Source of the DNA: an uncultured Gammaproteobacteria bacterium
Lineage (GTDB): Bacteria > Pseudomonadota > Gammaproteobacteria > DSM-16500
Assembly (NCBI GenBank): GCA_963719645.1
Contig: CAVRCT010000001.1
Location: 509,644 to 573,643 of the forward strand
DNA: 64,000 bases
Direction: 5' to 3'
Shown here piece by piece: positions 3,656-27,651 of the stretch. The translations under genes were made by a program, and so were the position numbers. The notes beneath the pieces are model-generated. The model was not told where the DNA came from. It worked only from the letters and a program-made list of their open reading frames with translations, and made no database searches. Position 1 is the stretch's first letter; each line of letters opens with the position of its first letter.

Positions 3656-4031
3656 TATACAAATCCCCCTTGCTCCCCCTTTTTCAAAGTGGGAGACCTT
3701 CTAAACAGCTTTCACTGTTAAAACACAGAGCTGTTTAGAAGGTCTCCCACTTTGAAAAAGGGGGAACAAGGGGCAATGGCACTAGCTTAAGAACTGTTGT
3801 CCCGGAATTTAGTAGCTCTTAACGAGCGCCTTTTGCTCGTTTAGAGCTACTTAATGTCCGGGATCCATCTTCAATTTATCGCCCTCTTGCTTTTAACTTA
3901 TATGCTTTAAGCAAAATGGATCCCGGACATTAACTGGCGCTAAATTCGCAAAAAGCGCTCATTAAGCGCCAGTAAATTCCGGGACGACAGTTCTTAAGCT
4001 AGTGCCATTGGGAACAAGGGGGATTTGTATA
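3656..4031. repeat. ~375-bp composite nested palindrome (family A units plus an embedded 90-bp hairpin)
   Basis: Outer arms TATACAAATCCCCCTTGCTCC (3656-3676) / GGAACAAGGGGGATTTGTATA (4011-4031). Inner hairpin 3675-3764 (CCCCCTTTTTCAAAGTGGGAGACCTTCTAAACAGC ... inverse). Then CAATGGCACTAGCTTAAGAACTGTTGTCCCGGAATTT...GGGATCCAT // ATGGATCCC...AAATTCCGGGACGACAGTTCTTAAGCTAGTGCCATTG. It sits between the HlyD-like and PCAT genes. Confidence 0.85.
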
Positions 4032-4131
4032 AAAAAAATAAATTTTTCTCTGTAGATACCCATGAAGGTGATTACAAAAAATCAAGAAACTCATTATGCG
4101 TCAGCACAAAAAGCGCATCCTTGACACGAGA

Positions 4132-4980
4132 CTAGCGCTGAGCCATCAATCGCGCTGGCGAACTTTTTTTATAAATTATCTTAGCAGACACCATGGTCCC
4201 CGGCTCAATGCGATAAGACGAACCACGCTTTGTAGTCCATGCTAGCCCACTGTCCGTCGATTTATCTCTTTGTAAACGAATTTTGACAACAAAAGGAGCG
4301 CCTCCCATAAAAAAATCATCCACTAAATTCATATTGCCCAGATACGAATAGACCAATTGTTTTGAAATCGGATACGCAGAAATACTAATCACTTTTCCGA
4401 CAATGTATCCATGCGCATACTGTGATATGTCATTAGATAATACATAAGCGTTCATCCCCACTACTATCTTTTTTCCATGCGTACGATCTGCAAAAACTAA
4501 CGCGTCTAATTGCGTGTTTGAACTATTCATCTCAGTGTTTGATAACAAATTTGTTAAAGGAGAATAAGCATTTCCATTCGGACTAGATAATTCTTCTTTA
4601 GCGGCAATAAGCTCAGATTTTGTTTTTAGTAAGTCCTCTAGCGTGACATAATGATTCTCAAACATTTTCTTCTTCTTATTGTATAAGTCTTCTAACAAAA
4701 CAATTTTTTCATTACGATCTTTCAACGCTTGACTAAAAAGAGTTTCAACTGCAATTAATTTTTCTTCCGGCAGAATCATGCCATTTGTATCAACACTCAA
4801 TGTAATCGTTCCAAACAATCCCCACAGCAAAATACAAACGAGTATTAACGCCGCAAAAATCATCCAGAGCCACTCGCTGGGATTAATCACTTGGAGTGCT
4901 GGGTATATTTCATCTAATGAGTTCAAATTATCAAGAGCATTTTGACGAAATAAATTATTATCAAAAGAAGATTTCAACAT
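4132..4980 (-). CDS. HlyD-family periplasmic adaptor / bacteriocin-system secretion protein (short form)
   Basis: 282-aa ORF. The N-terminus FRQNALDNLNSLDEIYPALQVINPSEWLWMIFAALILVCILLWGLFG (conserved R..AL..L.S.D.L motif plus a single TM anchor) resembles NHLM-type bacteriocin secretion proteins. A coiled-coil stretch and beta-barrel-like C-terminus follow. Located between the ATP-grasp and PCAT genes. Confidence 0.7.
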   Translation of the reverse strand: MLKSSFDNNLFRQNALDNLNSLDEIYPALQVINPSEWLWMIFAALILVCILLWGLFGTITLSVDTNGMILPEEKLIAVETLFSQALKDRNEKIVLLEDLYNKKKKMFENHYVTLEDLLKTKSELIAAKEELSSPNGNAYSPLTNLLSNTEMNSSNTQLDALVFADRTHGKKIVVGMNAYVLSNDISQYAHGYIVGKVISISAYPISKQLVYSYLGNMNLVDDFFMGGAPFVVKIRLQRDKSTDSGLAWTTKRGSSYRIEPGTMVSAKIIYKKSSPARLMAQR

Positions 4981-5003
4981 CTAGTCAACACTATTCCTTT
5001 AGG

Positions 5004-6086
5004 CTAAAAATTTTCAGGAATTTTATGGATACTTTCAGCGTGTTTTTTTATCACCATCATTTCCTTTTCAAAATCAAACAAAGATACACGTCGAGAATTT
5101 ATTTTTTCACAATGACCGCATCGGATCAAAAAATCAACGAAGCATTGAAGCATTTTAATTGTTGGGTTAACATCTTCAATCCACAAAAATTGACCTTGCT
5201 CGTTTATTTCTAAGAAATAATAGTCATCCTCTGGCGTAACAATAAAATCAAAACAGCCGAAAAGAATATTAAATTCACTCATCATTTTTTTACACAATCT
5301 ATCTAGCTTATCTGGAATAGTCACTCTTTCCAATGAAAGCTCTTTGGTCGGCGCAGATCGCCAATCTATTATTGCTTTCTCATGTTCTTGAGAATTAATT
5401 TTGACTGCAACATAATCATCACCAAAATAGGTAATTCTCAATTCATATTTTTTCGCTATTTTTTCTTGAAAAATGCCAGGAATACTTTGTAATATCGCAT
5501 CGCTTGGTAAATCAGACAGGGCTACTTGACTCGTATAACCCAACCGAGCTTCTTCTTTTTTTAGCCAAGCCATTGGATAAAGAGATTTATAGATCACATT
5601 TCCCGCGTGCATTTTAAGAAAGCGTTTAATGTCTTGGGGATTATTCGAGATGAGCGTTTTGGGAATTGTCATTCCAACGGCAGACGCTATTTTTAATTGG
5701 AGCAATTTTGAATTCACTCGCGTGACAGAATTGGGTGGATTGACCCAAACCGCATCCGGTTGGATCACTTGCCATAACGTTTGAAACAATATTCTATTTT
5801 CTTTTTTAGCATTCACTATATCGTCAGGATGCAAAATATCCGGCAATATTGGCTGTGCTGCTCTGCGATGCCAAACAATATCGTACTTTTTATCATGTCC
5901 GTCATAATCCACCCCTTTTAAATGCCATGAGATATTTTTACCCCTTATTTCGAATGAATGCGTTTGTTGCGATGGAAAATCTGCTGTATACCAAAGATCT
6001 GCTGCGTGACCCATTTTTTCAAGCGCTAATTTCACATAAATTGCGTGAGTGTCATCCGGTTTTGTTGGAATTAAAATTGTTAACAC
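5004..6086 (-). CDS. ATP-grasp ligase, microviridin MdnB/MdnC (MvdC/MvdD)-like RiPP macrocyclase
   Basis: 360-aa ORF. The N-terminus MLTILIPTKPDDTHAIYVKLALEKMGHAADLWYTADFP matches the characteristic start of MvdD/MdnC-family ATP-grasp enzymes (ILIVT...D.h...V...L...G......D.FP). Its size fits, and it lies immediately downstream of a small Thr/Asp-rich peptide ORF. Confidence 0.75.
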   Translation of the reverse strand: MLTILIPTKPDDTHAIYVKLALEKMGHAADLWYTADFPSQQTHSFEIRGKNISWHLKGVDYDGHDKKYDIVWHRRAAQPILPDILHPDDIVNAKKENRILFQTLWQVIQPDAVWVNPPNSVTRVNSKLLQLKIASAVGMTIPKTLISNNPQDIKRFLKMHAGNVIYKSLYPMAWLKKEEARLGYTSQVALSDLPSDAILQSIPGIFQEKIAKKYELRITYFGDDYVAVKINSQEHEKAIIDWRSAPTKELSLERVTIPDKLDRLCKKMMSEFNILFGCFDFIVTPEDDYYFLEINEQGQFLWIEDVNPTIKMLQCFVDFLIRCGHCEKINSRRVSLFDFEKEMMVIKKHAESIHKIPENF

Positions 6087-6115
6087 AGCTACCCTCTTTT
6101 CCTAAAATGATCGAA

Positions 6116-6138
6116 AACCCCTCTGATTCAGAGGGGTT
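6116..6138 (-). terminator. Stem-loop between precursor ORF and ATP-grasp gene (candidate attenuator/partial terminator)
   Basis: AACCCCTCTG-ATT-CAGAGGGGTT, a perfect 10-bp GC-rich stem 6 nt downstream of the precursor stop. On the minus strand it is followed by TTCGATCATTTT. Confidence 0.5.
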
Positions 6139-6143
6139 GATAC

Positions 6144-6305
6144 TTAAAAATCAACATTTACATCCATAGCCACATCTGATCCCCCTTGACGACCAAACGT
6201 TGTTGCGGTCGTCGCAACGGAGGTTCCACTGGCTGATACATTTTCAATTTCTGCCGCTGTTAATTTTTGGGATAGTTTGTGAGATAAGATTCTTTCATTT
6301 TTCAT
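6144..6305 (-). CDS. Candidate graspetide precursor peptide (53 aa), not in ORF track
   Basis: Own translation: MKNERILSHKLSQKLTAAEIENVSASGTSVATTATTFGRQGGSDVAMDVNVDF. ATG at 6305, TAA at 6144-6146. Leader spacing L-x3-E-I-x2-V-x-A-S mimics the double-glycine leader consensus. The core has a Thr/Ser-rich half followed by three Asp residues. Confidence 0.6.
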   Translation of the reverse strand: MKNERILSHKLSQKLTAAEIENVSASGTSVATTATTFGRQGGSDVAMDVNVDF

Positions 6306-6392
6306 AATTTACTCCGAAATTTTATTGATATTGTGCTTGTGACATGACAAGCAAAACCATTATCAGAAACTTCCTTTTTTAACACAATATAG

Positions 6393-6411
6393 TGGAAATA
6401 CAGTATTTCCA
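6393..6411. promoter_or_regulatory. 19-bp perfect palindrome upstream of the precursor ORF (candidate operator for the adjacent LuxR-type HTH protein)
   Basis: TGGAAATAC-A-GTATTTCCA, 9-bp arms around one central base, about 90 bp upstream of the precursor ATG and 26 bp downstream of the LuxR-type gene stop. Confidence 0.35.
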
Positions 6412-6436
6412 ATTTTGACAACATCATTTTTGACTG

Positions 6437-6640
6437 TTAATGGAGATTTATGATCCGCACTTTAAGCGCAATAAAAATAATATGCGCTGCATTTTTAGCG
6501 CCTAATTTTTTTCTAATGTTTGCCATATAGGTTTCAATTGTTCTGTGCTCAAGCCCTGTGATCCGCGCAATTTCTTTGGCCGTCAAACCACATGCGGTAT
6601 GTTTAATTATTTCAATTTCTCGACTGCTTAACTTTTGCAT
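6437..6640 (-). CDS. LuxR/GerE-family HTH protein (DNA-binding domain only)
   Basis: 67 aa: LSSREIEIIKHTACGLTAKEIARITGLEHRTIETYMANIRKKLGAKN is a textbook GerE/LuxR C-terminal HTH. Confidence 0.85.
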   Translation of the reverse strand: MQKLSSREIEIIKHTACGLTAKEIARITGLEHRTIETYMANIRKKLGAKNAAHIIFIALKVRIINLH

Positions 6641-6932
6641 AAATATCCTTGTTGTTGATTAACCGATGCGTTTTTGTAACTGCTTTGTGGGGATGATTTG
6701 GCGATAGGGAAATCTGGTTGAAATGGAATGAAGTGTTTGACTCATTACAATTGTGTAAATAAGTAGATTATGTAAATAGGGATGCGATGACTTGAGAGGG
6801 TTTAATCGAGTAACAGCGTATCTTGCTGAAAATCGCGTGGATAATATCTTGGCCGCTCATCGCTGTCAAGCTCGTGACTTAACAACTTTTCAGTGATGTT
6901 GTTGAGTTTCGCTTGCGCTCAACCCAACGAGG

Positions 6933-7253
6933 TATAAAGCAGCGAGATGCTTAAGAAAGGGCTGTCATCCTGAGTGCTTTTCGCTCCGAAGGATCCCACG
7001 CAAATTTCTGATGTTTGCTAAAAAATATTCTTAAGCATCTCTCTACTTTATAGGGAGATCCTTCGGAGCGAAAAGCACTCAGGATGACAGCCCTTTCTTA
7101 AACATCTCTCTACTTTATAGGGAGATCTTCGGAGCGAAAAGCGCTCAGGATGACAGCCCCCTCTTAAGCATCTCGCTGCTTCATAGGGGGATCCTTCGGA
7201 GCGAAAAGCACTCAGGATGACAGCCCTTTTTTAAGCACTCAGGATGACAGCCA
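6933..7253. repeat. Array of family B palindromic units (one forward, about 3.4 tandem inverted, ~65-bp period)
   Basis: GGGCTGTCATCCTGAGTGCTTTTCGCTCCGAAGGATCC at 6958-6995. Inverse units ...TTAAGCATCTC.CT.CTT.ATAGGG.GATCCTTCGGAGCGAAAAGCACTCAGGATGACAGCCC at about 7031-7093, 7094-7158 and 7159-7226, plus a truncated copy to 7251. Confidence 0.85.
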
Positions 7254-7345
7254 TTTCTTTAAATCAAGGCTCTCTTAATAATTCGTTAAGGTAGATTCTA
7301 TAAACTTTACAACTCACTAAGCCATTCATATAAGAGCAATGAACG

Positions 7346-10300
7346 ATGGATTCAAAACGGCAACCTTCCGTCAAACAAGAGAAGCCTACTTTTCTCAATA
7401 GCCCTGCAGGCAAACTGATTAAGACGCTGCTGGATGCGATTCATGTTGCGCAAAAAGAACTTGATAAAATAGCTCATCCAACACCGACAGAGAAACATGA
7501 ATTAAAAGAATTTCTTAAGTACCTAGAGGATACTGTTTCACGCGTTATTTCAATGTTGTCTCACTTTGATAATCAAAATATTCCCTGGTTATTGACCTTT
7601 GTCGATATTGTACTAGATGGATTTAAAATATATAAACAGTTCGATATAAAACGTCCTCTTTTTGAAGACAGCCGCATCATTGGACACCCGATCATTTCTC
7701 GCCTTGCCGCTGCAGTTTTACCAACAATAAAAGAATTTCCGCCCACTTTAAAAGAATTCATGCCTTTCTTAAATCCACAGGCTCTTCATGCTGTCGAAAG
7801 TGTATTAGATTATGATATGACAAAAAAAGCATTGGATCTTGATAACTCTCCTTCCTTTGAACAACATTCCGAGGGAATTACAAATACAGAAAGACCTTAT
7901 CGCTATCTCTTTTGTGAGAACGAAAACCTTCCTGATGAAATGCTTATCTTAGCGGTTGCAGAACCAACACCGGAAGTCATCGCTTCACTGAGAGGAGACG
8001 TTGAATTAATATCGATTTCGGATGTAGTCACTGAAGAAAATCTCGCCGAATTAGAATTCAAATCTAACGCCGCCTATGTGCGCTGCAAAATGTTTTTGAG
8101 CAATGACATAATAACAGAGCGGCTTTACTATATAGACCATCATTTTAAGACATATGCACTATTAGAAATGTCTCAGGAAGAACTGCAAGAACTCGATCAA
8201 GAATTAAAATTAGAAACAGACAGTCGAAAAAAATTAACTACCGATCAATTAAAAAAAATAATGACAGTAACGCCTTATCATCTCCGCAGTTTTGATTTAC
8301 CTTTCTTGCTCACTTGGGACAAAAAATTTTGGTTTTACGCCAACGGCAAAGAAGGAAAATGGTCATTCACAGCAGCGAATTCTGACGTATGTCAATGTTT
8401 ACCTTTTACGCCGGGGAAAATGGTATTTTTAAAAACTAAAAATTTACCTACAAAACTGCTAGTAGCCGTCACACCACCAAAAACCAAAACCCTCGATGAT
8501 GCAATGATGACTTCTATAAGAGGAAATTGCGAAATAGTGTGTCTGCCAAATATTGTGCGGGAAAGAGACGTTGAAAAATTAACATTCGAATCGAATGCCG
8601 CTTATATTCGTTGTAGAATGATTCTCAGCGATGAAAAAGCAGAAGAAACAGTTGTTACGGAACAACTCTATTATCGCGACAAACCACTTAAAACGTTTCA
8701 ACGGTTCCAAGACTTAGATGATGAAGCACTACACGCTTTCGATAAAGCGTTAGAACTCACGACCAAGACACGGCGAATTTTACTGCCTATCGATTTAAGA
8801 ATGATTGATAGAAGAACGCCCCCTCATGACAGAAGCGTTGACAACCATTGGCCGATATTGCTGAAACATGAGAAAGAATTCAGTCTCTATGAATACGATT
8901 CTAAAAGCCAGCGTGGTGAATTTACTCCAGTGAATGCCCTTGTTTGTAAAAAAATTAGTTTTCCTGCTGTCAATAAGATGGCAATGTTAGACTACACCGA
9001 CAGTCAATCGCCGCCGTTATTTCCTGTGTTTCAAGAAATTCATGCGAAAAAAATTCATAATTACGTTCCTATAATTATCGATGCAGATGCGCATTATGAA
9101 GGTTTTGGGCAAAGCCTGATGCATTATTTGCAAGATTTTCGTAGTATGAGCAACTCACCCCATCAAACTATTCTTGAGCAAATAAACACGTGGCTTAAAT
9201 CATTTATTAAACCCGATGATCAAGCAATCATTGAAGATGAATTCAAACAAATGCCAGATTTTATGCCACATAATTTGATGGTTGTGCCCAACGAATTTCA
9301 TTTAGATAAACATTTGTTATCCACTATCTCTTGCACCAGTTTTATTCGTCATCGTGATGGAATTTATTTATATGATTGTGACAGCCAGCGACTTCATGAG
9401 ATGAAGATGTCGGTTTCTCTGCAAGCTTTTGACGAACAATTTAAAACAAAAAACACTTCTCAACCGAATCCCATGATATCCATTACGCTTCCTTTGGATA
9501 AGCCATTAACATCGGAACTCCTTGAAAAATACTCCACCCTGGCTCCACCCTATAGGATTTATCCGATGAAGACTCAATTTACACAGGATTATAAATCCAT
9601 TGGAGATATTCCCGACTATAAAAAATTAGAAACTGCTGGACTACTCTCTTTTAAGAGTACTCCTTTTTATTTACGTTTTTTACTCGGAAAAGGAAAGAAA
9701 AAAGACACCCTCATCTACCGTGTTTTTTCTCGTCAAAAAGAACCTATCGAGGGAGAAATTTCACTAACGGATTTAAAACAGCAATTAAAAGAAAAATATT
9801 CGAATTTTGCGCCACTGTTGGCTAATTTTCCCATCCCAAATAAATCGATGCCTAATCAATTTAATCGCCAATTCTCGCCTTATTTAGCCGATTTTATTGA
9901 AATAGCTGCCAAGAGAGGTCATGTCTCTCCTCTGCAAAAACCTGTCATTGTACGACAAATCGATGAAGGCCCAGATCCTCACCCAGATTCGACCATCATT
10001 TCAGTCTTTGACTACTCTCCTGAAGAAAAAACATGGCGCGTCAAAAAGCTTGGTCTACACGAATTGCCCGAAAAAATGACAGCACCATCCTATCAAGGTC
10101 TATTTGTTTATGGTGTAGATGAAGCAGTTCGCCGAGAGATTGCACTTTGTGGTGCACACAGAGAAAACTTACCCTCATTAAAAGAAACAACACCCAATAT
10201 CGCCTATAGAAGACTTGCTGATAGCGAGATCAATGAATTGCAACAAATGATGCAGTTTTCAGCCAAAACAAATAAGCCGTTTGATCTCATTTATAGATGG

Positions 10301-11614: not shown

Positions 11615-12934
11615 ATGACATCATCATCTAATCAACGTCAAGCTATCACTGACGCCATCAATGAGCATATCCGCGAAACAATTACCTCGAGCGATCCCAA
11701 AATCACGCGATTAGCCGAACAAAAAGACCTTCAAAAAGGTGCTGTCAGATTTTGTTTTTTTGAATTTCATGATAATGAATGGTCGTTTCAGCTTGCTAAT
11801 GAATTAGTGAAAAAATTTGATATTGGTGTCATTGGGTTAGAGCATCCTATCCAGCGAACCGGCTATTTTGAACAAGATAATTATGGAGGCGATTTAGAAA
11901 CAGGCATAGATTATGATGCGCTTGATGACGAGAAAATGAGTGATGATGAAATAGAGCTCAACGTGGCATATTCACGTGCATTAACAACATTTGCTAAATC
12001 ACTTAAAAAAACAGCACCGCTTGTTTGCATAGATCTTGCGACGGAAGAGGAAGAGATACTCTGTAGCAAGCCTGCGATAAAAAGCTATATAACAGATACT
12101 GCTAAAAAATTGCCGCCCAATACTTATGATAAGTATGGTGCTGTCAGCATTCTCAGAGATTCATTGCGTAATCAATTTATGGCGCATACTATTTCTTATT
12201 TTACGTCGGCGCCGATGTCATTAACGATTACTGGCGCAGCTCATAAAAAAATTGTTGATGCATTATATGCGATTGAAAATAATGTGATTCCTATTCTCAT
12301 TAAATTTACCCTTTCAGAGTTAACGAATGCCATTGGCATTACTGTCGAAAATTACACTCCAGAAAAAAATGCAAATTTCTTACAAATAGTGTTGTCGGTA
12401 CCCGCTTTTGATGAATGCGATCCTCAACTTTTTAAAATGCTGATTGATGAGATAGCGAGTCCAATTACTCGATATCTTCAGCGGAGAAAAGAGGGAGTTC
12501 TTGAACCGGAAATCTCATTTCGCAAAATGATTTGCTTACCTGCACCTAAACCAAAAACATCTGGACATGCAGGAGATACAAAAAGTTCAGCAAGCTCATC
12601 GAGCTCTTCTTCAAGTTCTTCTTCGAGCTTTTCTTTGAACTCTTCTTTGAACTCTTCTTTGAGCTCTTCTTCGAGCTCTTCTTCAAGCGCGGCTCATGCA
12701 GCTTCAGATAATTCTGCAGCCCCAGGTGCTTCTTCTTCAGAAACATTGAAAATTGTATCAAAATCTACATTGCCTTTGGGCTTTGCTAAAAAACAAGAAA
12801 AATCTTCGAGTTCTTCAGAAGACGCATCAGATAATAAAAAAATATCTGGGCACAAGAGAAAAGAACATCCTGAAGCAGATCGAGATAATCAGAAACACAC
12901 TAAGCCCGGGTACAACCCATACGCGTCAAGCTAA
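11615..12934 (+). CDS. Orphan protein with C-terminal poly-serine low-complexity region
   Basis: 439-aa ORF with AGAGG RBS-like sequence upstream. SSASSSSSSSSSSSSFSLNSSLNSSLSSSSSSSSS tract encoded by imperfect tandem repeats (about 12590-12700). The last codons and stop lie inside the flanking palindromic repeat. Confidence 0.7.
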   Translation: MTSSSNQRQAITDAINEHIRETITSSDPKITRLAEQKDLQKGAVRFCFFEFHDNEWSFQLANELVKKFDIGVIGLEHPIQRTGYFEQDNYGGDLETGIDYDALDDEKMSDDEIELNVAYSRALTTFAKSLKKTAPLVCIDLATEEEEILCSKPAIKSYITDTAKKLPPNTYDKYGAVSILRDSLRNQFMAHTISYFTSAPMSLTITGAAHKKIVDALYAIENNVIPILIKFTLSELTNAIGITVENYTPEKNANFLQIVLSVPAFDECDPQLFKMLIDEIASPITRYLQRRKEGVLEPEISFRKMICLPAPKPKTSGHAGDTKSSASSSSSSSSSSSSFSLNSSLNSSLSSSSSSSSSAAHAASDNSAAPGASSSETLKIVSKSTLPLGFAKKQEKSSSSSEDASDNKKISGHKRKEHPEADRDNQKHTKPGYNPYASS

Positions 12935-13323
12935 GGAAATTTTCTTAGCACACTTTCACCCACAGAGCTTAGGTATTCCTCCGCTGTGTCGTCCTGAAAA
13001 ATCTTACGCCCGAATTATTTGACCGTAGTTATTGTAGTAGCGCGTAAGATTTATTCAGGATCCACGAACGAAGAACTGATTCTGGAATTTTTATGGATCA
13101 ATGATACTCAAGTGGATCCTGAATAAATATTCCGTGCGAGTACTATCGCTACGGTTAAAGTACGTTGACGTCATATTTTTCAGGACGACGCATGGGTGGA
13201 ATTTGCGTCGATCCGTCAGCCCTGTGGGCATAGGCGTCAAGCTGCTGTGTCGTCCCGCGCTAAAAGCCGCGCGGGACGACATAGCGGAGGCTTGTGTAGA
13301 TCCTTAGCTTGTGACGCGTATGG
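12917..13323. repeat. ~400-bp multi-level nested palindrome
   Basis: Paired arms, outermost to innermost: CCATACGCGTCAAGCTAAGG (12917-12936) / CCTTAGCTTGTGACGCGTATGG (13302-13323); CCTCCGCTGTGTCGTCC / GGACGACATAGCGGAGG; TGTCGTCCTGAAAAAT / ATTTTTCAGGACGACG; CGCGTAAGATTTATTCAGGATCCAC / GTGGATCCTGAATAAATATTCCGTGCG. There is also an embedded family C hairpin GTGTCGTCCCGCGCTAAAAGCCGCGCGGGACGACA. Confidence 0.85.
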
Positions 13324-13579
13324 CCCTTGCGGGGGAAGACATTCGAAGCAAAATTTCCTTAGCTTGAGGCTCATGGGATACAACCATAACCTTACCTATA
13401 AGTACAGTTGCAATACTTGTGACTCTGCAAAATTTGACCCCATACAAAACCTGGTTTACTTTGTCTATAATATTGCCCATGATGTAAAGATATGCTAAAT
13501 ATATAGCCAATTTTAAATTATTATTTCGCAAGAATCACACAGAGGCTCAATCATAGATTCAAGACCTAAAAAAAACTTA

Positions 13580-15191
13580 ATGCCCAGTAAAAAACATCCC
13601 CGCGACGAGGAATTGAAAGATGGGAATGAGCTCCCCACTAAACGTACAAAACGAGCAACGTATCAAGGTTCTTATAAAGAAAACTCTGGTTCTGGTTCTG
13701 ATGTTGAGATGGATGATAGCGACAGTGAAGAAAAAAAAAGACGCTGTGACAACGCCTAAAAAAGTAAAAAGCAAAAAAAGAAAGAGGCATGCTTTCAGCA
13801 CAACTGCTTTAGAAACCCCCGCTCCGGGTTTTAAAGCAACACTCCACTCAGAAGCCGCGTGGCCTACTGAGGGTGAAAAAAATGAAACTATTATAAAATT
13901 AACGGTCGGAAGCTCCTTCGACAGAAACAAATATGACAAGGCACTTATTGCGGCTAGACAAGCATATATCGATGCCAATCAAGTACCGCCGTTACCGGAA
14001 ATTGAGGAAGAATATAAAACCGGAATTTACAAACTTGCAATTTTTAACACAAGAAATAATAAGTTCTGCAAATATTCTTTCGCCGATAGAAATCTGCTGG
14101 GCTATATTAGGGCCACTGTCAAAAGAAAGAATAGTAGTAACTTGTTTGAAGCGAAAGGTAAACCCACTGAGAAACTAAAAGCTAAAATTATGCAGTTATT
14201 GAAAGGAGAGGCGCTGGGTACTAAAAAAGGCTCGAAGAAAAAAGAATTGGCTGCAGAAGTTGACACATTGCAGGGAGAAGAAAAAGAACAATATTTGCGT
14301 GCAATTCGATTTGCTGAGGTATGGGTTAATGAATTTTCATCGTTAAGAAATGCCGGTAATGCGCCGAAGAAAAAATCTAAATCTAAATCTGACTTTGTTG
14401 CAAAAGATTCTACAACATTAAGTTCTTCTAGTTCTTCTAGTTCTTCTAGTTCTTCTAGTTCTTCTAGCTCTTCTAACTCTTCTAGCTCTTCATCAGGTAA
14501 ATTTGGGGGCAAAGTGTCGGCGCGCTCAAGCTACAAGACTAAATTCAACTCTCAACCTACCATTGGATTTGAAAATAACACGGATTCTGTTGCAGATGAC
14601 TCTGCTAGATTAAGCTCCTCTAATTCCTCATCGAGTTCTTCGTCGAGTATGACAGCAGCAGCGCAACATCAGAAACAATCTAACCAAAGCCCGTTCGATT
14701 ATTCAGACGGCGATACTGCAAATACCCCAAAAAGGTTCGGGTTTTTTAGTTCATCTAGCTCTTCTAGCTCTTCTAGTTCCTTATCTAACGCCATAGAGGA
14801 AGCTTTGCTGTTTGGAGAGATGGACTTTTACGAGGACAACACTAATAGTTCTTCGTCTAGTTCTTCGTCCATTGCGCCTCTTTTTCCATCTTCTCCGATA
14901 GATTCGTCTCATTCCTCGACAGCAGGCGTCATGCAAGCAATGTCAGCTAGTCCTGCTAGACCAGCACGCTCAAATAGTTTTTCTGATAATCCAGTTTATA
15001 ACTCACTCAGTTCAGCATATTCATCTCACCCAGGATACTGCTTTTCTGATTCATCTCCTTACCCAATCGAGCCAATCGAACAACCCGAACCAAAATGGGA
15101 AAGGAGTCTTAGCGGCAATTCAGCCAATAACGATGAAATGCTAGAAGATAGCAAAGATGCAAAAGTTGATAAGACTTTCAGACCGTACTAG
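13580..15191 (+). pseudogene. Ser-rich, basic-cluster (NLS-like) orphan protein split by a frameshift at an A9 tract (or phase-variable/slippage gene)
   Basis: ATG 13580 gives MPSKKHPRDEELKDGNELPTKRTKRATYQGSYKENSGSGSDVEMDDSDSEEKKRR, stopping at 13757-13759. After A9 (13731-13739) the track ORF frame (13620..15191) reads KKKKDAVTTPKKVKSKKRKRHAFS... An A8 tract would fuse both into one ~536-aa ORF. The first ~35 aa of the track ORF (MGMSSPLNVQNEQRIKVLIKKTLVLVLMLRWMIATV) look like out-of-frame reading. Confidence 0.55.
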
Positions 15192-15214: not shown

Positions 15215-15364
15215 CAATGGCACTCGCTTAAGAACTGTCGTCCCGGAATTTACTGGCGCTTAATGAGCGCCTTTTGCGAATTTAGCGCCAGTTAATATCC
15301 GGGATCCATTTTGCTTAAAGCACATAAGACGTAGGTTGGGTTAAGCGTCAGCGAAACCCAACAT
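15215..15364. repeat. Family A1 unit plus family E hairpin
   Basis: CAATGGCACTCGCTTAAGAACTGTCGTCCCGGAATTTACTGGCGCTTAATGAGCGCCTTTTGCGAATTTAGCGCCAGTTAATATCCGGGATCCATTTTGCTTAAAGCACATAAG, followed by GTTGGGTTAAGCGTCAGCGAAACCCAAC. Confidence 0.85.
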
Positions 15365-20110: not shown

Positions 20111-20160
20111 TTTGTTGCTGGTGTAGCAAGCTGGGGTTTTTGCGCAGCTTCAAAGCGCAG

Positions 20161-20277
20161 GGTGCAATCGGAGCTGTTGCGTAATTCACGGTGTCAATTC
20201 AGTGTCGTGCCAGCGTGCTTTTACTGGCACGACACTGAATTGGCACCGTGAATTACGCAACAACGCCGGTTGCACCC
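20161..20277. repeat. 117-bp long-stem palindrome
   Basis: GGTGCAATCGGAGCTGTTGCGTAATTCACGGTGTCAATTCAGTGTCGTGCCAG-CGTGCTTTTA-CTGGCACGACACTGAATTGGCACCGTGAATTACGCAACAACGCCGGTTGCACC, between convergent-free gene ends (terminator-like position after 17255..20110). Confidence 0.85.
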
Positions 20278-23400: not shown

Positions 23401-23606
23401 CTATTCAAAAAATTAAGCAGCATAAAGAAGAAATGACAAGATTAGGATTTTTTGAAAAGAAACCGTTCCGCAATAAAATTAATGCGCTTAAAAAAATATT
23501 AAGAGAAGTAGATGTCTATATCCCAGATTCGTTGATGGATTATACAAAACGAAGCCATGATGTATGGTCATCCAATTTACCCCCGGCTTATAGAAGTCGG
23601 CCTTAA
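20466..23606 (+). CDS. U-box/RING-like + coiled-coil + ankyrin-repeat protein (eukaryote-like E3-ligase-type effector candidate)
   Basis: 1046 aa. Residues ~18-70 LIPLCSLSHQPIRKVGMTSCQCVFELEVIQQWFSKGGKTCPSCKKNI follow the U-box pattern (C.L....I......C.H.FE...I..W......CP.C). ANK repeats: DANLVKLLLELGADPNQ and TALHYAASDDRQLDHVFLLLQQGANLYLKDNTGHTALDYAGKN. Confidence 0.75.
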   Translation: MSLDRVNPADSKQIDSKNLIPLCSLSHQPIRKVGMTSCQCVFELEVIQQWFSKGGKTCPSCKKNIPTITVPNPKLQETIDSIVKLNSIHQAAVLQHETIIADLKRQNQELAADVKQQVEELAKTNSLLEILRSHEGPNVSLSKTAKQIAKAAQIENARFQEIKKGMPYFIAWHCCHIILLTYDNKHRAILRQLWVARKKYRTDQAAFQANMVSLVEAIDAIKISEVKDEKQSPFKQVKQCQQTFRQVIKNRQREMHDLKHVFDHLKEDIRHLHAMLRSLSNKSEYHLQNIAKLELELARSLRKAQTVFTDSLVFPQTASHDIGEPFDAELEQKMPDNLQDALAQLEKSRLEQSSLKNKLNKAKLKFGIFLVDLAQRLNAVTDSTSTTSTSSLIPEEDKTPSELKQPVHEVKESKSSVVPAEKQAAFVKAITDSKMANRFDVISQLVREFPSLLEMQLFSGFSQGALLTSLFTSICDRDANLVKLLLELGADPNQTYTTIHPTDPSKNTSKNTMLIGVTGSLINSHSDDDRTQFREIFKILLASPCIEVNRANEYKVTALHYAASDDRQLDHVFLLLQQGANLYLKDNTGHTALDYAGKNKLAILKFYQLIQEKRAQTIVDNEKMFHANHEQWRHLKVRHTQWLHEHADHLNRLQLLREHLPQHDSMLRAHRKELLQRINGCRSEQDLNSLAWEFKTYEQERRDNLRMQQDRQQLTELVDPVLKDYTSNQKKYAVLLPDGLDNQKLVIQRRWFLNWKKNKVTLTAKEWSLLLKPASWEEVAKIVVNLPLDRKHLTALLLKNYQHENLLGNDPAGLKLLFHYYTRIIHDIEFRQLFRLIGDAFELLPSQYKLRIAVIYQQLIILSNMNQSLEVRIDCIKAYLASQYLDLRVESKKSENSPLTHTLNDILVKHFNLTLPRIFDTPITARMPHQSFAERQEECRNLRQALVKIYDKEVPSQNTEEKSILDLVKNSFDQLVEFAIQKIKQHKEEMTRLGFFEKKPFRNKINALKKILREVDVYIPDSLMDYTKRSHDVWSSNLPPAYRSRP

Positions 23607-23720
23607 TCTCTCTTTTTCAGATCGCTTAGGATCATGTACTGATGCATCGACACGAATTTAATTTAACACTCTGATTAAAATGCTCTCCCTCCTGCAAAGA
23701 TATCTTCACAAGCCACCCAT

Positions 23721-23756
23721 GTGTCGTCCCGCGCTAAAAGCCGCGCGGGACGACAC
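23721..23756. repeat. Family C hairpin
   Basis: GTGTCGTCCCGCGC-TAAAAGCC-GCGCGGGACGACAC. Near-identical copy at about 13248-13284. Followed by TATAAAGCAGCGAGATGCTTAG, also seen at 6933-6954. Confidence 0.85.
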
Positions 23757-23856
23757 ACACTATAAAGCAGCGAGATGCTTAGAAATATAGTTAGCAAAGC
23801 CTCAGAAATTTGCGCGATTTTTAAAAATGCATCCTGAGATAAGTCTATATCTAAAA

Positions 23857-23937
23857 TTGACGGGGGAAAAATTAAATTTGCTCGAACAGAAAATTGATGT
23901 TGCCATCCGCCTTACCCATACACCACCACTCAATTAA
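23857..23937 (+). pseudogene. LysR-family regulator internal fragment
   Basis: Own translation LTGEKLNLLEQKIDVAIRLTHTPPLN* resembles the substrate-binding-domain segment (...DVAIR...) of LysR regulators. No start and no HTH. Confidence 0.35.
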
Positions 23938-24085
23938 TCGCGTTTACTGGAAATAATAAGCCTAAACGTAAACAACTATCCAATCTTGTCGACTAATTTC
24001 ATCTCTAAAAATGCCAAATCTGATTTATAATATCATCACATCCAGTAAGATTTATCCAAATTATACTCAAGACGATGAATTGTTA

Positions 24086-25327
24086 TTATCGTCTAACAAC
24101 TAATCCCCAATTTTGATCCCATATCTTTTGAGCTTGATGATTACCAGCTAGTTTTGCAACATCAAGTTCACTTTGAAATTCCTTCAGAGATGGACCAAAA
24201 ATTGAAAAAGGTATGACACTAACACATAGGTTATCATCACTTAATGTAGTCTTTGTATTGCCTAGACTAGAGATGATCAACTCTAATCTATCTATCCTAT
24301 GTAATTCTTCATCATCTATCTCTTCAGCTAATCTACCATATGATTTTTCGCCACCTATCATTTCAAATAGTGATTTCTGTGTAACAGTAATGCAATTTAC
24401 TTTAGGCAAATGCGACAATGATTCAGGAGATAATATGGCTTTTGCTAAATTCTGATATTGAGCTTCTAATTTTCGATAAAAATTAGCGAATTCTCCTAAT
24501 GCTATCTTTTTACCAACAATATCTAATTCTAATTTATAATCGACAACATCATCTATTCTTAAACCGTTTATCATTTTATAAATTTGGTCTAAAAGAATAA
24601 TGGTTTTTGTAGCTGTTAAGATTTCACCACCTGGTTTATATTGATAAGATTCGGGAGCACCTTTTGGTGCTTCTTCAAGATGCATCAATTCATGATAGGC
24701 AACGACATGAGGCGGTAAAAAACCGTCATATTTTTCATTATGAATCCCGTTGTCCGCTTCTACTGCAACATGCAGTCTCCATGTATTAAATTCATTTTCC
24801 AAATCAGACAACCATGTTTTATTGCTCTCTTCTCCTGGATATCCCGACTTTTTCCACGATACGCAGTTTTCTTCTGTTACACCATAGGTTTTATATTTTT
24901 CAATATAATCAAGAAAAATTTGTCTTGCAAATTTATTAGCTGCGTCACGTTGGTGATTAGGAATGATATATAAATATCTTGACTGGTAAATAGCTTTTTC
25001 AAAATTATGCAGGACATAATAGTCTGGCAAATTCATTGCTGTAATAATGTCGGTTAATTCCTCAGAACGTGTACCTACCACGGGACTCTGACGGGAGTGA
25101 AAACCTGGTGTATTAAGATAATTTAATTTTCTTTCGAGAGTTTGCTGGTGTTGTATATCTTTATGTTCGGCATTATTCATTTGAGGTTTAAATTCTACTA
25201 AAGCTGAATTTAAAATCCTAACAGGGGTAATACCAATGTTAACGATGCTTAAATTTTTTATTTTCACAAAAATTACTCCGATAATATCAGAAAAGGGGTC
25301 AGGTACTGAGCATATCGTTACCCACAA
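24086..25327 (-). CDS. Orphan protein with HExxH zinc-metalloprotease-like motif
   Basis: 413-aa track ORF. VVAYHELMHLEE (HELMH encoded at 24680-24694). The first ~20 codons lie in the flanking repeat, so the true start is probably the GTG at 25267 (GGAG 8 nt upstream) or M50. Confidence 0.6.
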   Translation of the reverse strand: MWVTICSVPDPFSDIIGVIFVKIKNLSIVNIGITPVRILNSALVEFKPQMNNAEHKDIQHQQTLERKLNYLNTPGFHSRQSPVVGTRSEELTDIITAMNLPDYYVLHNFEKAIYQSRYLYIIPNHQRDAANKFARQIFLDYIEKYKTYGVTEENCVSWKKSGYPGEESNKTWLSDLENEFNTWRLHVAVEADNGIHNEKYDGFLPPHVVAYHELMHLEEAPKGAPESYQYKPGGEILTATKTIILLDQIYKMINGLRIDDVVDYKLELDIVGKKIALGEFANFYRKLEAQYQNLAKAILSPESLSHLPKVNCITVTQKSLFEMIGGEKSYGRLAEEIDDEELHRIDRLELIISSLGNTKTTLSDDNLCVSVIPFSIFGPSLKEFQSELDVAKLAGNHQAQKIWDQNWGLVVRR

Positions 25328-25447
25328 GTCTAAAAAGCCCTACGGCTCCAGCTTAAAAGTAGGCTGTCGTCCCGGAATTTACTGGCGCTTAATGAGCGCA
25401 TTTTGCGAATTTAGCGCCAGTTAATGTCCGGGATCCATTTTGCTTAG
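25311..25447. repeat. Family A1 unit with extended left flank
   Basis: CATATCGTTACCCACAAGTCTAAAAAGCCCTACGGCTCCAGCTTAAAAGTAGGCTGTCGTCCCGGAATTTACTGGCGCTTAATGAGCGCATTTTGCGAATTTAGCGCCAGTTAATGTCCGGGATCCATTTTGCTTAG. The same flank occurs at both ends of the 27344-27651 composite. Confidence 0.85.
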
Positions 25448-25466
25448 GAACTGTGGGATACGCGAC

Positions 25467-25617
25467 CCCTTTACTTTTACATAGGTATCTACACAGCTAT
25501 ACATAAGTAGAAAAAAGTGTTTTTTTGGTAGGGTGGCACGATGCAAAAAGCGCGTCGTGCCACCCTACAAATTTTCAAAAAAACACTTGTGTAGATACCT
25601 ATGTTACTTTTATAGGG
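25467..25617. repeat. 150-bp three-level nested palindrome
   Basis: Outer arms CCCTTTACTTTTACATAGGTATCTACACA / TGTGTAGATACCTATGTTACTTTTATAGGG. Middle AAGTGTTTTTTT / AAAAAAACACTT. Core GGTAGGGTGGCACGA...TCGTGCCACCCTAC. The right arm contains the last codons and stop of 25610..26950. Confidence 0.85.
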
Positions 25618-26950
25618 AAAAATTATTTTTTACAGGATGCGGGGGTGGATCGCTACGATCGAGTTCAGCGCTATCATTTTTTGCATCAGGAATACACCCA
25701 TCATCCTTAGCAATCGGAGTGGGTAGTACTGAGTCATTACCCTCAGTCACTGAATTCTCAGAAGCAGCACGTTGTTCGACTGGTCGACTAGCAGGTGCAA
25801 GCGGTGCTCCTTGTTTCATTAATTGCTGATAGGTTGGTTGCATCGGTGAATTAGGGGTTTTATCAAGCATAACTGAAGGTCTGTTGCCTTGCACCAAAGG
25901 AGTAGTCAGCGGTCCAGATACAGGCGTAAAATGGCTCCAATGCACGTTATCTGCAGCTGCATAATGCATATTGGTTTTTTGCGCATCTAGATAGAAGCTG
26001 TAAGCGAGTGAAGCTATAAAGACACCAAGCGGAATAAATAACATTGCTTGGCCTACCACTGGAATGAGGCTCAACACGAGTCCGCAGATACCCGATAGCG
26101 CGGCAAGACCTAACACGTAATTTCGTTTTTGGGCGACTTTTGCTTCTTTGGATTGATTAAACACTTCCGCATAGCCTCTGGATCGAATGAAAGAACCTTC
26201 ACCGTGAGAAAACTGAGAGACGCTTTTCGAATTGATTAGCCTTTCCAGTTCTTTTGTATGAGCGTCTGAATCTGCTTCCACGGTCATGTCTGTCAACACT
26301 AGATTTTGCGATGATTGATTTACTGAATAAGTCGTCGTGCACCGACCGTCAATTTCAAAAATTGGTGCCTCAAAAAATCTAACACGATATCCTACAAAAT
26401 AACCATCTTCGATATTTGTTACGCGGTTCTCGCCAAGATGAAGCGTCGTTATAACCTTCTTGGGAACTACACGCACTGATGAGCAATCAATATCACGACG
26501 AAGCTGTTTCCAATGATATGGTGGTTCAGGATTTTCGGCTGCCTTTAGCGAAAAGACGGAAGAAAGTGCTTCTGCAGAAAAATGACAATCTGCTTGTGTT
26601 AATCGCTCTTCAAAGAAAGCGAGATCTCGGATTGCGCTTGATTCTGCTGCCTTTTCATCGACTTCAAGGTTTGCTTGCTGCTGCTTTTGAACAGTTATCG
26701 CTTTAATCGCTGCGATCAATTGCTCACGCGATTGTCCTTCATATTTAATAAAGTCACTGCCCACTTCCAAAAAAATTTCATGGCGGGTGGGATTTACTGA
26801 ATCGGGTTTATTGGGAATAAAAATAGTTTCTTTTGAATCAAGTGCTACTGCACGCGTTTCTAGATTATGGCTAGCCCGTTCAATCACATAGCGATTTTTT
26901 GAATTAGCCAGACTGCTAACAGAGGAAAGTACTTCTTTAAGAGTTGCCAT
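25610..26950 (-). CDS. Orphan membrane protein with bilobed hydrophobic domain (Inc-like topology), Pro-rich C-terminus
   Basis: 446-aa ORF. YVLGLAALSGICGLVLSLIPVVGQAMLFIPLGVFIASLAYSFYL (two adjacent TM helices, about 25972-26104). No family recognised. Confidence 0.7.
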   Translation of the reverse strand: MATLKEVLSSVSSLANSKNRYVIERASHNLETRAVALDSKETIFIPNKPDSVNPTRHEIFLEVGSDFIKYEGQSREQLIAAIKAITVQKQQQANLEVDEKAAESSAIRDLAFFEERLTQADCHFSAEALSSVFSLKAAENPEPPYHWKQLRRDIDCSSVRVVPKKVITTLHLGENRVTNIEDGYFVGYRVRFFEAPIFEIDGRCTTTYSVNQSSQNLVLTDMTVEADSDAHTKELERLINSKSVSQFSHGEGSFIRSRGYAEVFNQSKEAKVAQKRNYVLGLAALSGICGLVLSLIPVVGQAMLFIPLGVFIASLAYSFYLDAQKTNMHYAAADNVHWSHFTPVSGPLTTPLVQGNRPSVMLDKTPNSPMQPTYQQLMKQGAPLAPASRPVEQRAASENSVTEGNDSVLPTPIAKDDGCIPDAKNDSAELDRSDPPPHPVKNNFSL

Positions 26951-27087
26951 TTATTTACCTTTTTTAGGGAGTTAAAATTATTGCAGGGCTTGTTATTCTT
27001 ACAAGAATACCATGGGTTATTCGTACAAAATATACAAAAATCTGAGCGATAGTAGATGTAATATAGCAGAGAAAAATTAACAAATTC

Positions 27088-27249
27088 TTAAGAAGTCAGT
27101 TTTTTTGTAGCATTTTGCAAATCATGATCCAGCGTGTAAAAACGTTTTGCACCATTATTTTGTGCGATGGCTAAATGTAATTCATCGCCTGCGCGTAATC
27201 CCGTGTTGGGATGTTGGAGCAATGATGTTGCTAAATTATAATCGGCAAG
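27088..27249 (-). pseudogene. PIN-domain VapC toxin, C-terminal remnant
   Basis: Own translation LADYNLATSLLQHPNTGLRAGDELHLAIAQNNGAKRFYTLDHDLQNATKKLTS* (the D.LHLA.A ... T.D pattern of PIN/VapC C-terminal halves). The reading frame is cut upstream by a TGA inside the family F palindrome at 27257-27332. Confidence 0.5.
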
Positions 27250-27256
27250 TATGAAT

Positions 27257-27332
27257 CGGGGTCAGGCTTGCACAATTGCACATTCCTACGCCTGATTAAA
27301 AGTGCAATTGTGCAAGCCCCGTTTTGACCCCG
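27257..27332. repeat. Family F palindrome, unoccupied copy
   Basis: CGGGGTCAGGCTTGCACAATTGCAC-ATTCCTACGCCTGATTAAAA-GTGCAATTGTGCAAGCC-CCGTTT-TGACCCCG. Inner 17-bp and outer 8-bp stems. Confidence 0.85.
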
Positions 27333-27343
27333 TTTCGCGCCTA

Positions 27344-27651
27344 AGTCTAAAAGGCCCTACACCTCTAGCTTAAAAGTAGGCTGTCATCCCGGAATTTAGT
27401 AGCTCTAAACGAGCGCTTTTGCTCGTTTAGAGCTACTTAATGTCCGGGATCCATTTTCAATTTACCGCCTTCTTGCTTTTTAACTTGCGTGCTTTAAGCA
27501 AAATGGATCCCGGACATTAACTGGCGCTAAATTCGCAAAAAGCGCTCATTAAGCGCCAGTAAATTCCGGGACGACAGCCTACTTTTAAGCTAGAGGTGTA
27601 GGGCTTTTTAGACTTGTGGGTAACGATATGAGTGCAACCATATCATTACCC
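27344..27651. repeat. ~300-bp composite palindrome, same architecture as 3656-4031 (A2 unit + central segment + inverted A1 unit, extended arms)
   Basis: AGTCTAAAAGGCCCTACACCTCTAGCTTAAAAGTAGGCTGTCATCCCGGAATTTAGTAGCTCTAAACGAGCGCTTTTGCTCGTTTAGAGCTACTTAATGTCCGGGATCCAT ... ATGGATCCCGGACATTAACTGGCGCTAAATTCGCAAAAAGCGCTCATTAAGCGCCAGTAAATTCCGGGACGACAGCCTACTTTTAAGCTAGAGGTGTAGGGCTTTTTAGACT, then a GGGTAACGATATG/CATATCATTACCC hairpin. Confidence 0.85.

Follow-up and report, generated by a model that had tools for sequence, protein, structure and literature searches.

The hairpin repeat NTS of Neisseria (CGTCATTCCCGCGMAVGCGGGAATCYRG) is the target of SsnA, a protein of 94 aa that consists of a single GIY-YIG domain and belongs to CDD family cd10448 (Chenal et al. 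2025, Nat Commun; PMC11893778). SsnA binds NTS as single-stranded DNA only, does not bind RNA, and cuts a few nucleotides upstream of the repeat; cleavage requires the three nucleotides (GTC) immediately 5′ of the palindrome, whereas the C immediately 3′ of the palindrome matters most for binding (PMC11893778). NTS repeats are ~98% intergenic, and related hairpins, the Ssn-related motifs (SRM), flank ssn homologues across phyla; the NTS-ssnA-NTS arrangement has been called insertion sequence (IS)-like, with no transposase named (PMC11893778). Here we analyze palindromic repeats in 64 kb of DNA from an uncultured Gammaproteobacteria bacterium (contig CAVRCT010000001.1 of assembly GCA_963719645.1, positions 509,644 to 573,643; hereafter the window), in which hairpin families A to E carry one common foot. 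A preliminary description of this DNA recognized no described family in these repeats; we find that their foot is the hallmark of the NTS/SRM repeats that Ssn nucleases bind and cut (PMC11893778). It is likely that families A-D, with C and E probably as symmetric forms, belong to the SRM superfamily, read by a small GIY-YIG Ssn. All coordinates refer to the window, which has a G+C content of ~37%, and L numbers denote contigs or loci fetched from metagenomes and metagenome-assembled genomes (MAGs).

The positions conserved across the window families are those important in NTS, which reads CGTCAT-TCCCGCG..CGCGGGA-ATC where the repeats here read (T)GTCRT-CCCGG..CCGGG-ATC. Further likenesses are that intergenic copies, clustered around genes, number in the hundreds, that bacteria associated with hosts are enriched for them, that a GIY-YIG gene of ~95 aa stands in a repeat-gene-repeat arrangement (seen for family A in related loci), and that closely related enzymes pair with different hairpin variants. 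The systems also differ. In most cases the foot here is GTCG and not GTCW, and the hairpins of families A and D measure 60-77 nt, with conserved bulges and mismatches and a covarying box, whereas described SRMs measure 20-50 nt. In addition, the window contains heterodimeric doublets, tandem arrays and nested MITEs (miniature transposable elements with inverted repeats) with target duplications, the cassette lies inside an IS630-type transposon in related loci, and the window has no ssn gene.

The foot is far more frequent than expected. TGTCRTSCC has 13 matches in the window against 0.76 ± 0.88 expected, a count reached by none of 100 shuffles. With the units read in one orientation, the consensus is 5′-(C)TGTC-R-TCC...hairpin...GGA-T-CC(A/C)-3′, which is asymmetric and oriented; the corresponding two-part signature GTC[AG]TCC-N15-70-GGATC[CT] has 11 matches where 0.085 are expected, and no more than 1 appeared in any of 200 shuffles. 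A chance likeness, in which a short motif happens to fall on a few G+C-rich palindromes of an A+T-rich genome, could appeal to the small number of families (five or six) and to GGATCC, the count of which is not significant by itself (11 vs 7.35 expected in the window). It is the placement of GGATCC alone that is significant, with 10 of the 11 sites inside units and the eleventh in a relic at 51088. Both enrichments speak against chance, as does the presence of the same foot on other hairpin types in unrelated metagenome contigs; this explanation is refuted by the shuffles, and its probability is negligible.

In DNA folds of families A and D, the stem runs exactly from TCC to GGA, leaving GTCR unpaired on the 5′ side and TCCA unpaired on the 3′ side. 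In families A, B and D, GTC-R lies directly 5′ of the folded stem and the unit ends in ..GGA-T-C-C(A), that is, with a C right after the palindrome, while families C and E are symmetric and have the GTC foot on both strands. Fold z-scores for A, C, D and E range from -3.0 to -9.7; a single family B unit is a weak hairpin (-3.9 kcal/mol, z -0.4). The values are -25.2 kcal/mol (z -9.7) for a 237-bp family A doublet (3774-4010), -15.3 kcal/mol (z -5.2) and -13.9 kcal/mol (z -3.0) for family D, -18.7 kcal/mol (z -7.8) for the first family C palindrome, and -21.5 kcal/mol (z -5.6) for the family A half element at 15215-15328, which abuts a GTAG-type hairpin.

The preliminary description had placed families A-E correctly, and the foot it reported is real. 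The symmetric form given there, TGTCGTCC...GGACGACA, is not a property of the unit, and appears because two asymmetric units stand in inverted orientation. A sixth hairpin type (25525-25571) was said to share the foot; it is without it, being a repetitive extragenic palindromic (REP) hairpin of the GTAG type with CGTGCC near the loop. The family E motif, reported at a stem base, sits instead at the apex of its palindrome. The interiors of the families do differ, as claimed, but some likeness extends beyond the 9-mer: GCTTAAGAA is common to A and B 5′ of the foot, and CCTCCGCTRTGTCGTCC is common to C (13281-) and D. Variants of the foot also occur, as in the second family D foot (GCGTCGTCC). 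A generic scan for stems ≥7 bp returned 626 hairpins, mostly A+T-rich chance pairs, and was too noisy to be of use.

All foot-bearing copies are intergenic, although coding DNA makes up 79% of the 3.4-28 kb stretch, and such elements occupy 8 of the 10 intergenic gaps between 3.4 and 28 kb, in agreement with the earlier observation that they fill nearly every gap. The nesting noted there is likewise evident, since region 3640-4047 comprises three nested layers. Beyond the window, hairpins that resemble those of families B, C, D and E and have the same foot are present on other contigs with A units as well. Examples include a B-like repeat, CGTCATCCTGAGCCTCGCGAAGGATCC, in L128, asymmetric relatives of family C such as TGTCATCCCGCGGCTTGACCGCGGGATCCAT in L044, and a relative of family E, TGTCATGCCAGCGAAGGCTGGCATCCAG, which matches the published SRM pattern and has five copies in L103.

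Family A provided enough copies for an analysis of the hairpin itself. In a scan of representative genomes, the A foot was found in two MAGs only, and the ~77-nt unit alone was shared with the window, at ~87% identity. A metagenome scan that specified the two conserved arms only, with box and flanks free to vary, placed family A in at least 120 metagenome contigs; among the matches listed were 143 units, 133 of them distinct. The order of parts is a GTCR or CAGT flank, TCCCGGA, ATTTA, a 7-nt variable box, CTTAG, a variable tip and CTTAG, followed by the box complement, TTAAT, R, TCCGGGA and TC-CA; columns set by the search pattern carry no information, and these include the bulged R, the T.T mismatches and the C of GGGATC. 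The 7-bp inner box has no conserved sequence and is paired in 95.8% of cells. It contains 365 double-change cells, compared with 106 ± 9 in shuffles (0 of 500 reached 365), and its covariation score is 0.367 as against ≤0.077 for slid controls. These data show that hairpin pairing is under selection. About two-thirds of the listed units have GTCA or GTCG as their 5′ flank, and the bases after GGGATC are C in 114 and A in 125 of the 133 distinct units listed (CA in ~90%). Doublets pair two box subtypes, both in the window and in a MAG.

An alternative is that the repeats work as structured RNA in untranslated regions, for instance as terminators, as small RNAs or as hairpins for processing or stability, with the foot as an RNase or protein site. 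The hairpins do lie just downstream of genes or between them, RNA would tolerate the alternation of A-T with G.T at the foot pair (57 and 30 of 130), and Coxiella MITEs yield small RNAs (PMC5896051). Wobble pairs, however, are rare in the covarying box (~3% of cells), no T run follows the hairpins, and the units stand in both orientations relative to neighboring genes as well as in inverted doublets. The window contains no rRNA, tRNA or Rfam match at the gathering score, and below that score only generic eukaryotic microRNA-precursor hairpins appear; nor does SsnA bind RNA (PMC11893778). We therefore regard an RNA element as highly improbable. A tRNA-like reading of the terminal ..CCA was rejected, since the MAG and B copies do not retain CCA. 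Integron attC sites resemble the repeats as sequence-diverse imperfect hairpins that act as folded single strands, with a conserved foot, extrahelical bases and a variable interior. They were rejected as an identification: there is no RYYYAAC/GTTRRRY core and no integrase among the scanned open reading frames (ORFs), and the flanking genes here are large and in both orientations, unlike cassettes.

A candidate for the enzyme that reads the foot emerged from the neighboring genes. When 1,021 ORFs from 128 loci were clustered all against all, one specific neighbor of the hairpins recurred, a 95-98 aa protein consisting of a single GIY-YIG domain (PF01541, E 1e-14 to 1e-16). In L075, L038 and L126 the geometry is unit(+)-gene(+)-unit(-), with the GTCR foot outward, and the partial loci L007, L011, L065 and L104 agree with it; in L061 and L105, the family A unit and the GIY-YIG gene are separated by a transposase. 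A Pfam census of the 149 ORFs ≤300 nt from units likewise showed GIY-YIG to be the commonest family, with 5 members. The hairpin-linked proteins have no NCBIfam equivalog and are assigned to PF01541 only. Among candidate homologues, 7,999 of the 8,000 scored pass E ≤ 1e-10; most of the best 120 of these 8,000 are 96-98 aa long, and some, from Legionellales MAGs, are named 'GIY-YIG nuclease family protein'. Tatlockia and Legionellales MAG proteins are among the homologues. The hairpin-linked proteins are candidate Ssn enzymes, for which single-strand binding and cleavage would carry over by analogy with SsnA.

Moreover, loci L131-L135, which come from Legionellales MAGs and were picked by protein alone, match the published SRM pattern on both flanks of the gene, and the hairpin of L133 (TGTCATTCCCGCGCAGGCGGGAATCCAT) agrees with the NTS consensus at 26 of 28 positions. 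The nucleases of L131-L135 are 79-84% identical to those with family A hairpins on their flanks. Within one enzyme lineage, therefore, the hairpin is in some cases a short canonical SRM and in others a long A hairpin, with only the foot in common. Such a swap of hairpins on one lineage directly supports the idea of different interiors with one recognition foot. The earlier suggestion that the shared foot marks one trans-acting, structure-specific enzyme for the whole superfamily is thereby supported, the GIY-YIG gene recurring beside family A hairpins.

The class of enzyme first suggested is not supported. The preliminary description had proposed REP/REPIN-type repeats mobilized by a RAYT transposase (Y1 HUH), with TGTC in the role of GTAG, or by another HUH enzyme. 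The resemblance to REP, BIME and REPIN elements is considerable and comprises dispersed extragenic imperfect hairpins with a short conserved 5′ foot motif, inverted doublets of two hairpin subtypes, a cognate gene flanked by repeats and recognition of single-stranded hairpins. In particular, the hairpin foot is directly preceded on its 5′ side by a conserved tetranucleotide, the window also contains classic GTAG REPs, and the doublets of one MAG (SMAG_U15700) have neither outer repeats nor an evident target duplication. The genome thus holds at least two differently footed hairpin classes, GTAG REPs and the GTC-foot families. The latter, however, have a GTCR rather than a GTAG foot, a GIY-YIG rather than an HUH/Y1 gene and, in families A and D, hairpins of 60-77 nt rather than 20-40 nt, and some of their copies have target duplications and DDE-type terminal repeats. 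No Y1 transposase (Y1_Tnp) was present among the ~50 window ORFs scanned. No Y1 family was among the recurrent neighbors in the 1,021-ORF clustering, in which GIY-YIG did recur, and Y1_Tnp was not among the 25 commonest families of the 149-ORF census, beyond which one or two Y1 genes are possible. Single-strand Y1 transposition also makes no target duplications, whereas a window doublet has duplications of 10-11 bp. A RAYT system is accordingly very unlikely to account for the GTC-foot repeats.

That duplication defines a mobile element. The 237-bp family A doublet, whose two units belong to different box subtypes and are separated by a 45-nt spacer, matches L110:218-456 at 94% and L049:1699-1939 at 83% identity, the sequences on either side being unrelated. 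These homologous copies are bounded by the duplications GGGTCAGACCT in L110 and GTCTAGAGAG in L049, so that duplications of 10-11 bp are seen across three genomes. Given the different duplications and unrelated contexts, the doublet at 3774-4010 is a MITE, which bears out the earlier view that the elements are mobile. Because the right copy of the duplication lies inside an arm of an older palindrome, the insertion is nested. The sequence at 3666-3773, into an arm of which the MITE inserted, is a 108-nt near-perfect palindrome (CCCCTTGCTCCCCCTTTTTCAAAGTGGGAGACC...); it has a sub-threshold Rfam match to the MIR1120/1122 microRNA-precursor family (68.5 bits vs gathering 86). The ends of the MITE fit the IS4-subgroup end consensus -AATR--------WTW, which goes with duplications of 10-13 bp (PMC2266710), and no matching transposase was found for these ends. 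Three neighbor ORFs (L011-L103, ≤300 nt from A units) match DDE_Tnp_1 (IS4/IS5-type) and could be partners of the MITE in making 10-11 bp duplications; the candidates scanned for these three neighbors were GTPases and epimerases. The inner junction of the MITE, C-TA-G^CTTAAGAAC (the caret marks the junction), would equally fit an IS630-type insertion into a palindrome CAATGGCAC-TA-GTGCCATTG. By description, QMITE2 of Coxiella burnetii, a related intracellular gammaproteobacterium, is similar: it is a 150-190 bp MITE with 23-29 bp terminal repeats, direct repeats that are unusually long (7-11 nt) and variable in sequence, and an inner palindromic repeat (PMC5896051). Its core, however, is a GTAG REP and not a GTC-foot hairpin (PMC5896051), and no GIY-YIG link has been reported.

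A second type of carrier was found in the related loci. In L134/L135 (ERZ25039595), L126, L061 and L105, a transposase gene and the GIY-YIG gene lie between hairpin-bearing terminal repeats of ~100 nt. The transposases of L126, L134 and L135 contain PF13358 (DDE_3) together with HTH_23/32 domains, and the HTH + DDE_3 transposases of loci with NTS-type hairpins (L134, L135) are 76-78% identical to those of loci with A-type hairpins (L126, L105, L061). The IS630-type ends are homologous, (C)TA^GTGCCGCGTCTTCTAAATACG..., and recur as (C)TA^GTG(C/G)C(G/T)CGTCTTCTAAATACG.. in ~10 loci; the junction is C-TA^GTG(C/G)C... in 10 of 11 ends, with duplication of TA at CTAG. Units of the CAGT subtype have TA^CAGT directly at the hairpin. 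These elements duplicate TA and have termini different from those of the window MITE, and the window contains no IS630-type (HTH + DDE_3) transposase. L131 retains the last ~25 nt of a transposase gene upstream of ssn, which indicates that cassettes without transposase arise from the full element by internal deletion. One nuclease, P0031, was read on six contigs, and the element is therefore multicopy. The idea that a hairpin-recognizing enzyme mobilizes the repeats did not hold up: their dispersal appears to be due to DDE transposases, which would act on hairpin-containing terminal inverted repeats, and not to the hairpin-binding enzyme. Based on these loci, we tentatively propose, at somewhat less than even confidence, that in this Legionellales-like lineage the SRM hairpins and ssn do not form a free-standing host system but are subterminal repeats and passenger gene of an IS630-family transposon. 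Its layout would be TA^GTGCCGCGTCTTCTAAATACG...GTCR-hairpin...transposase-ssn...hairpin...^TA.

The repeats might then be ordinary MITEs of one transposon lineage, the foot being a duplex binding site for the transposase with no hairpin-specific enzyme involved. The terminal inverted repeats, the target duplications and the IS4-subgroup fit of the window MITE (PMC2266710) all agree with this. So does the position of A hairpins within the ~100-nt IS630-type terminal repeats, with the CAGT-subtype hairpin starting 4 nt from the flanking TA (TA^CAGTTCCCGG), and so do the 5′ flanks common between families (GCTTAAGAA; CCTCCGCTRTGTCG). Double-stranded binding, however, leaves the compensatory covariation of the box unexplained, and the same foot is found with different outer termini (CAATGGCAC..., GTGCCGCG...) or with none. 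Furthermore, the hairpins carry a GIY-YIG gene between them, relatives of which are flanked by canonical SRMs, with single-strand recognition shown experimentally. We therefore consider a plain MITE origin of the foot unlikely.

Several observations weigh against assigning the window families to an SRM superfamily read by Ssn. The published SRM pattern HGTCWYN(0-2)YYVSBRHN(0-5)WNVSBRGN(0-2)RNCYNB has 0 matches in the window, and the count stays at 0 when D is allowed in place of W. This pattern serves as a heuristic for searches and covers short hairpins only; most copies in the window have GTCG instead of GTCW, and their loops or hairpins are far longer than it admits. About one-third of the metagenome family A units listed have CAGT or CGGT in place of GTCR, and families C and E are fully symmetric, without the ATC-type 3′ tail. 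No GIY-YIG gene was detected in the 64-kb window by tblastn, and ~120 of the 128 family A loci are without ssn nearby. The linkage to ssn was seen for family A only and in other genomes, the assignment of B-E resting on the foot and on look-alikes. Finally, as the hairpin lies within transposon terminal repeats, its conserved parts might be transposase binding sites.

Based on the Ssn data and the present comparisons, we propose a plausible mechanism for how one foot is maintained on many hairpins. The recognized form would be 5′-GTC-R-[palindrome starting TCC ... ending GGA]-T-C-3′, read only as single-stranded DNA. Ssn would bind the folded hairpin via the C 3′ of the palindrome and cut a few nucleotides 5′ of the motif, for which it would need the 5′ GTC. 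The foot would thereby be held constant, and the hairpin interior would be free to change as long as it still pairs; this would explain the presence of one foot on unrelated interiors. The copies in the window would be non-autonomous, with the doublets representing the two hairpin-bearing ends of an SRM-ssn-SRM cassette that has lost its gene. Doublets would move as MITEs with target-site duplications, and singlets and arrays would be partial or rearranged copies. Dispersal would most likely be the work of a DDE transposase that acts on hairpin-containing terminal repeats, and Ssn would act on the hairpins when the DNA is single-stranded, as in replication, conjugation or transformation. We infer that the source genome encodes an Ssn that reads all foot-bearing families, and that the doublets, singlets and arrays of the window are non-autonomous or decayed derivatives. 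For the element or its host, the benefit might lie in restricting single-stranded DNA that enters the cell, as happens in Neisseria, or in a part played in transposition or homing.

The elements of the window are listed in Table 1. The second family A doublet shows a C-TA-G junction on either side of GCTTAAAAGTAGG, and the half element at 25311-25446 overlaps the start of gene 24086-25327(-).

Table 1 Foot-bearing hairpin repeats, their insertion features and GTAG-type hairpins in the window.
Feature	Position	Strand	Remarks
Family A unit	3794-3869	+	Foot mutated to CTGTTGTCC
Family A unit	3915-3990	-	
Family A unit	15235-15310	+	
Family A unit	25364-25439	+	
Family A unit	27381-27455	+	
Family A unit	27502-27577	-	
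MITE, 237 bp	3774-4010	.	Outer inverted repeat CAATGGCACTAGCTTAAGAAC and two inverted family A units
11-bp target-site duplication GGAACAAGGGG, left copy	3763-3773	.	Read from sequence
11-bp target-site duplication GGAACAAGGGG, right copy	4011-4021	.	In right arm of older palindrome (3666-3773 / 3640-4047)
Family B unit	6962-6996	+	CTGTCATCCTGAGTGCTTTTCGCTCCGAAGGATCC; GTC-A-TCC...GGA-T-CC foot; hairpin short, imperfect
Family B feet	6963(+), 7089(-), 7155(-), 7222(-), 7249(-)		
Family B tandem array	7028-7259	-	67-nt period, 3.1 copies (7028-7237), then truncated fifth foot 7233-7259
Family D doublet	12975-13202	.	Two inverted long hairpins TGTCGTCCTGAA...TTCAGGATCCAC
Family D hairpins	12987-13063 (+), 13114-13190 (-)		Feet at 12987(+), 13189(-)
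Family C palindrome	13248-13281	.	TGTCGTCCCGCGC-N8-GCGCGGGACGACA; GTCG foot on both strands
Family C second copy	23722-23755	.	Followed by family B flank relic TATAAAGCAGCGAGATGCTTAGAA (23760-23814)
Family A half element	15215-15328	+	MITE outer end CAATGGCACTCGCTTAAGAAC, unit 15235-15310 and part of spacer
Family E	20160-20277	.	118-nt palindrome; TGTCGTGCCAG...CTGGCACGACA at apex (20203-20234); single copy in window
Family A half element	25311-25446	+	Unit 25364-25439, alternative outer arm AAGTCTAAAAAGCCCTAC..GCTTAAAAGTAGG
Family A doublet 2	27343-27615	.	Units 27381-27455 + and 27502-27577 -; longer outer inverted repeat
Family A spacer relic and first unit bases	51049-51099	+	..GCAACATGGATCCCGG
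GTAG-type REP hairpins	15330-15363, 25525-25571, 6892-6928, 34002-34038		GTAGGTTGGGTTAAGCG..CGAAACCCAAC; GGTAGGGTGGCACGA..TCGTGCCACCCTAC

The window contains further repeats. A short hairpin repeat, CGTCAAGCTAAGCAAAATTTCCTTAGCTTGA, lies directly after gene ends at 3502-3539, 12925-12950 and 13346-13376. Another palindromic family, GGGGTCAGGCTTGCACAATTGCACATTC..GAATGTGCAATTGTGCAAGCC, is present at 34270-34307, 34469-34538, 27253-27336 and 32584-32671, and occurs twice without a transposase; just downstream of such a palindrome is a gene for an IS110-family transposase (DEDD_Tnp_IS110 + Transposase_20) at 34617-35630 (+). By analogy with IS1111 on QMITE2 in Coxiella, the IS110-family gene looks like an IS1111-type element that targets the repeat. 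Imperfect tandem 9-nt repeats (TCTTCTAGT/TCTTCTAGC) at 14418-14494 and 14744-14785 lie inside a 523-aa ORF (13620-15191) and therefore encode a low-complexity, repetitive stretch of protein.

The gene content of the window includes ankyrin, Fic, VirB and IS110 proteins. Together with the named homologues of the hairpin-linked nuclease, this content points to a Legionellales-like gammaproteobacterium as the probable host. The region 1241-6305 (-) is a possible peptide natural-product cluster, with genes for a C39-peptidase ABC exporter (1241-3445), an ORF with no assigned family (4132-4980), an ATP-grasp enzyme with a weak MvdD-like match (5004-6086) and a 53-aa candidate precursor, MKNERILSHKLSQKLTAAEIENVSASGTSVATTATTFGRQGGSDVAMDVNVDF (6144-6305); an ORF with a LuxR-type helix-turn-helix (6437-6640) adjoins it. 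Mobile DNA abounds in the second half of the window (27836-32389, 42878-46512, 46594-47079 and 48661-50616), where there are three IS66-type transposases, an IS30-like integrase (37960-38982) and a reverse-transcriptase fragment, as well as genes for VirB3/VirB4, a YhcG-type nuclease and a Fic protein; this half probably represents a plasmid-like or integrative region. At 58993-59688, a gene for an IstB-like ATPase stands alone between inverted 80-nt ends (58869-59767) with iterated GAACA(C/G)T.ATTTCA motifs, and looks like an IS21-type element that has lost istA. PLSDB contained no plasmid that matched 24 kb of the window when searched in near mode, nor one that matched all the repeats, joined into a 2.1-kb concatenate, when searched in distant mode. 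Literature searches by sequence strings (GTCGTCCCGG and similar) returned primer sequences only, and those on Legionellales palindromic repeats or Legionella REPIN/RAYT returned nothing relevant.

The Ssn system itself is known; what is new is an SRM variant with long hairpins and a GTCG foot that is borne on MITEs and missed by the published pattern, together with its link to an IS630-type transposon. As long hairpins and GTCG feet escape that pattern, SRM censuses probably undercount. The covarying box and the exchange of short for long hairpins amount to a natural specificity experiment for what Ssn enzymes read, and this specificity bears on their proposed use as programmable single-stranded DNA cutters. 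For annotation, the elements matter in that they fill most gaps between effector-like genes and break short-read assemblies. The presence of hairpins and ssn inside an IS630-type transposon with MITE derivatives suggests how the repeats multiply. If the transposon reading is true, the missing mobilizer of SRM-ssn-SRM cassettes would be named and Ssn would be a transposon accessory factor. SRM expansions would then be amplified MITE derivatives of an IS630-family transposon, in which the hairpin interior would be a fast-evolving, swappable module on elements with ~80% identical nucleases, while the foot would be kept fixed by a transposon-encoded single-strand nuclease.

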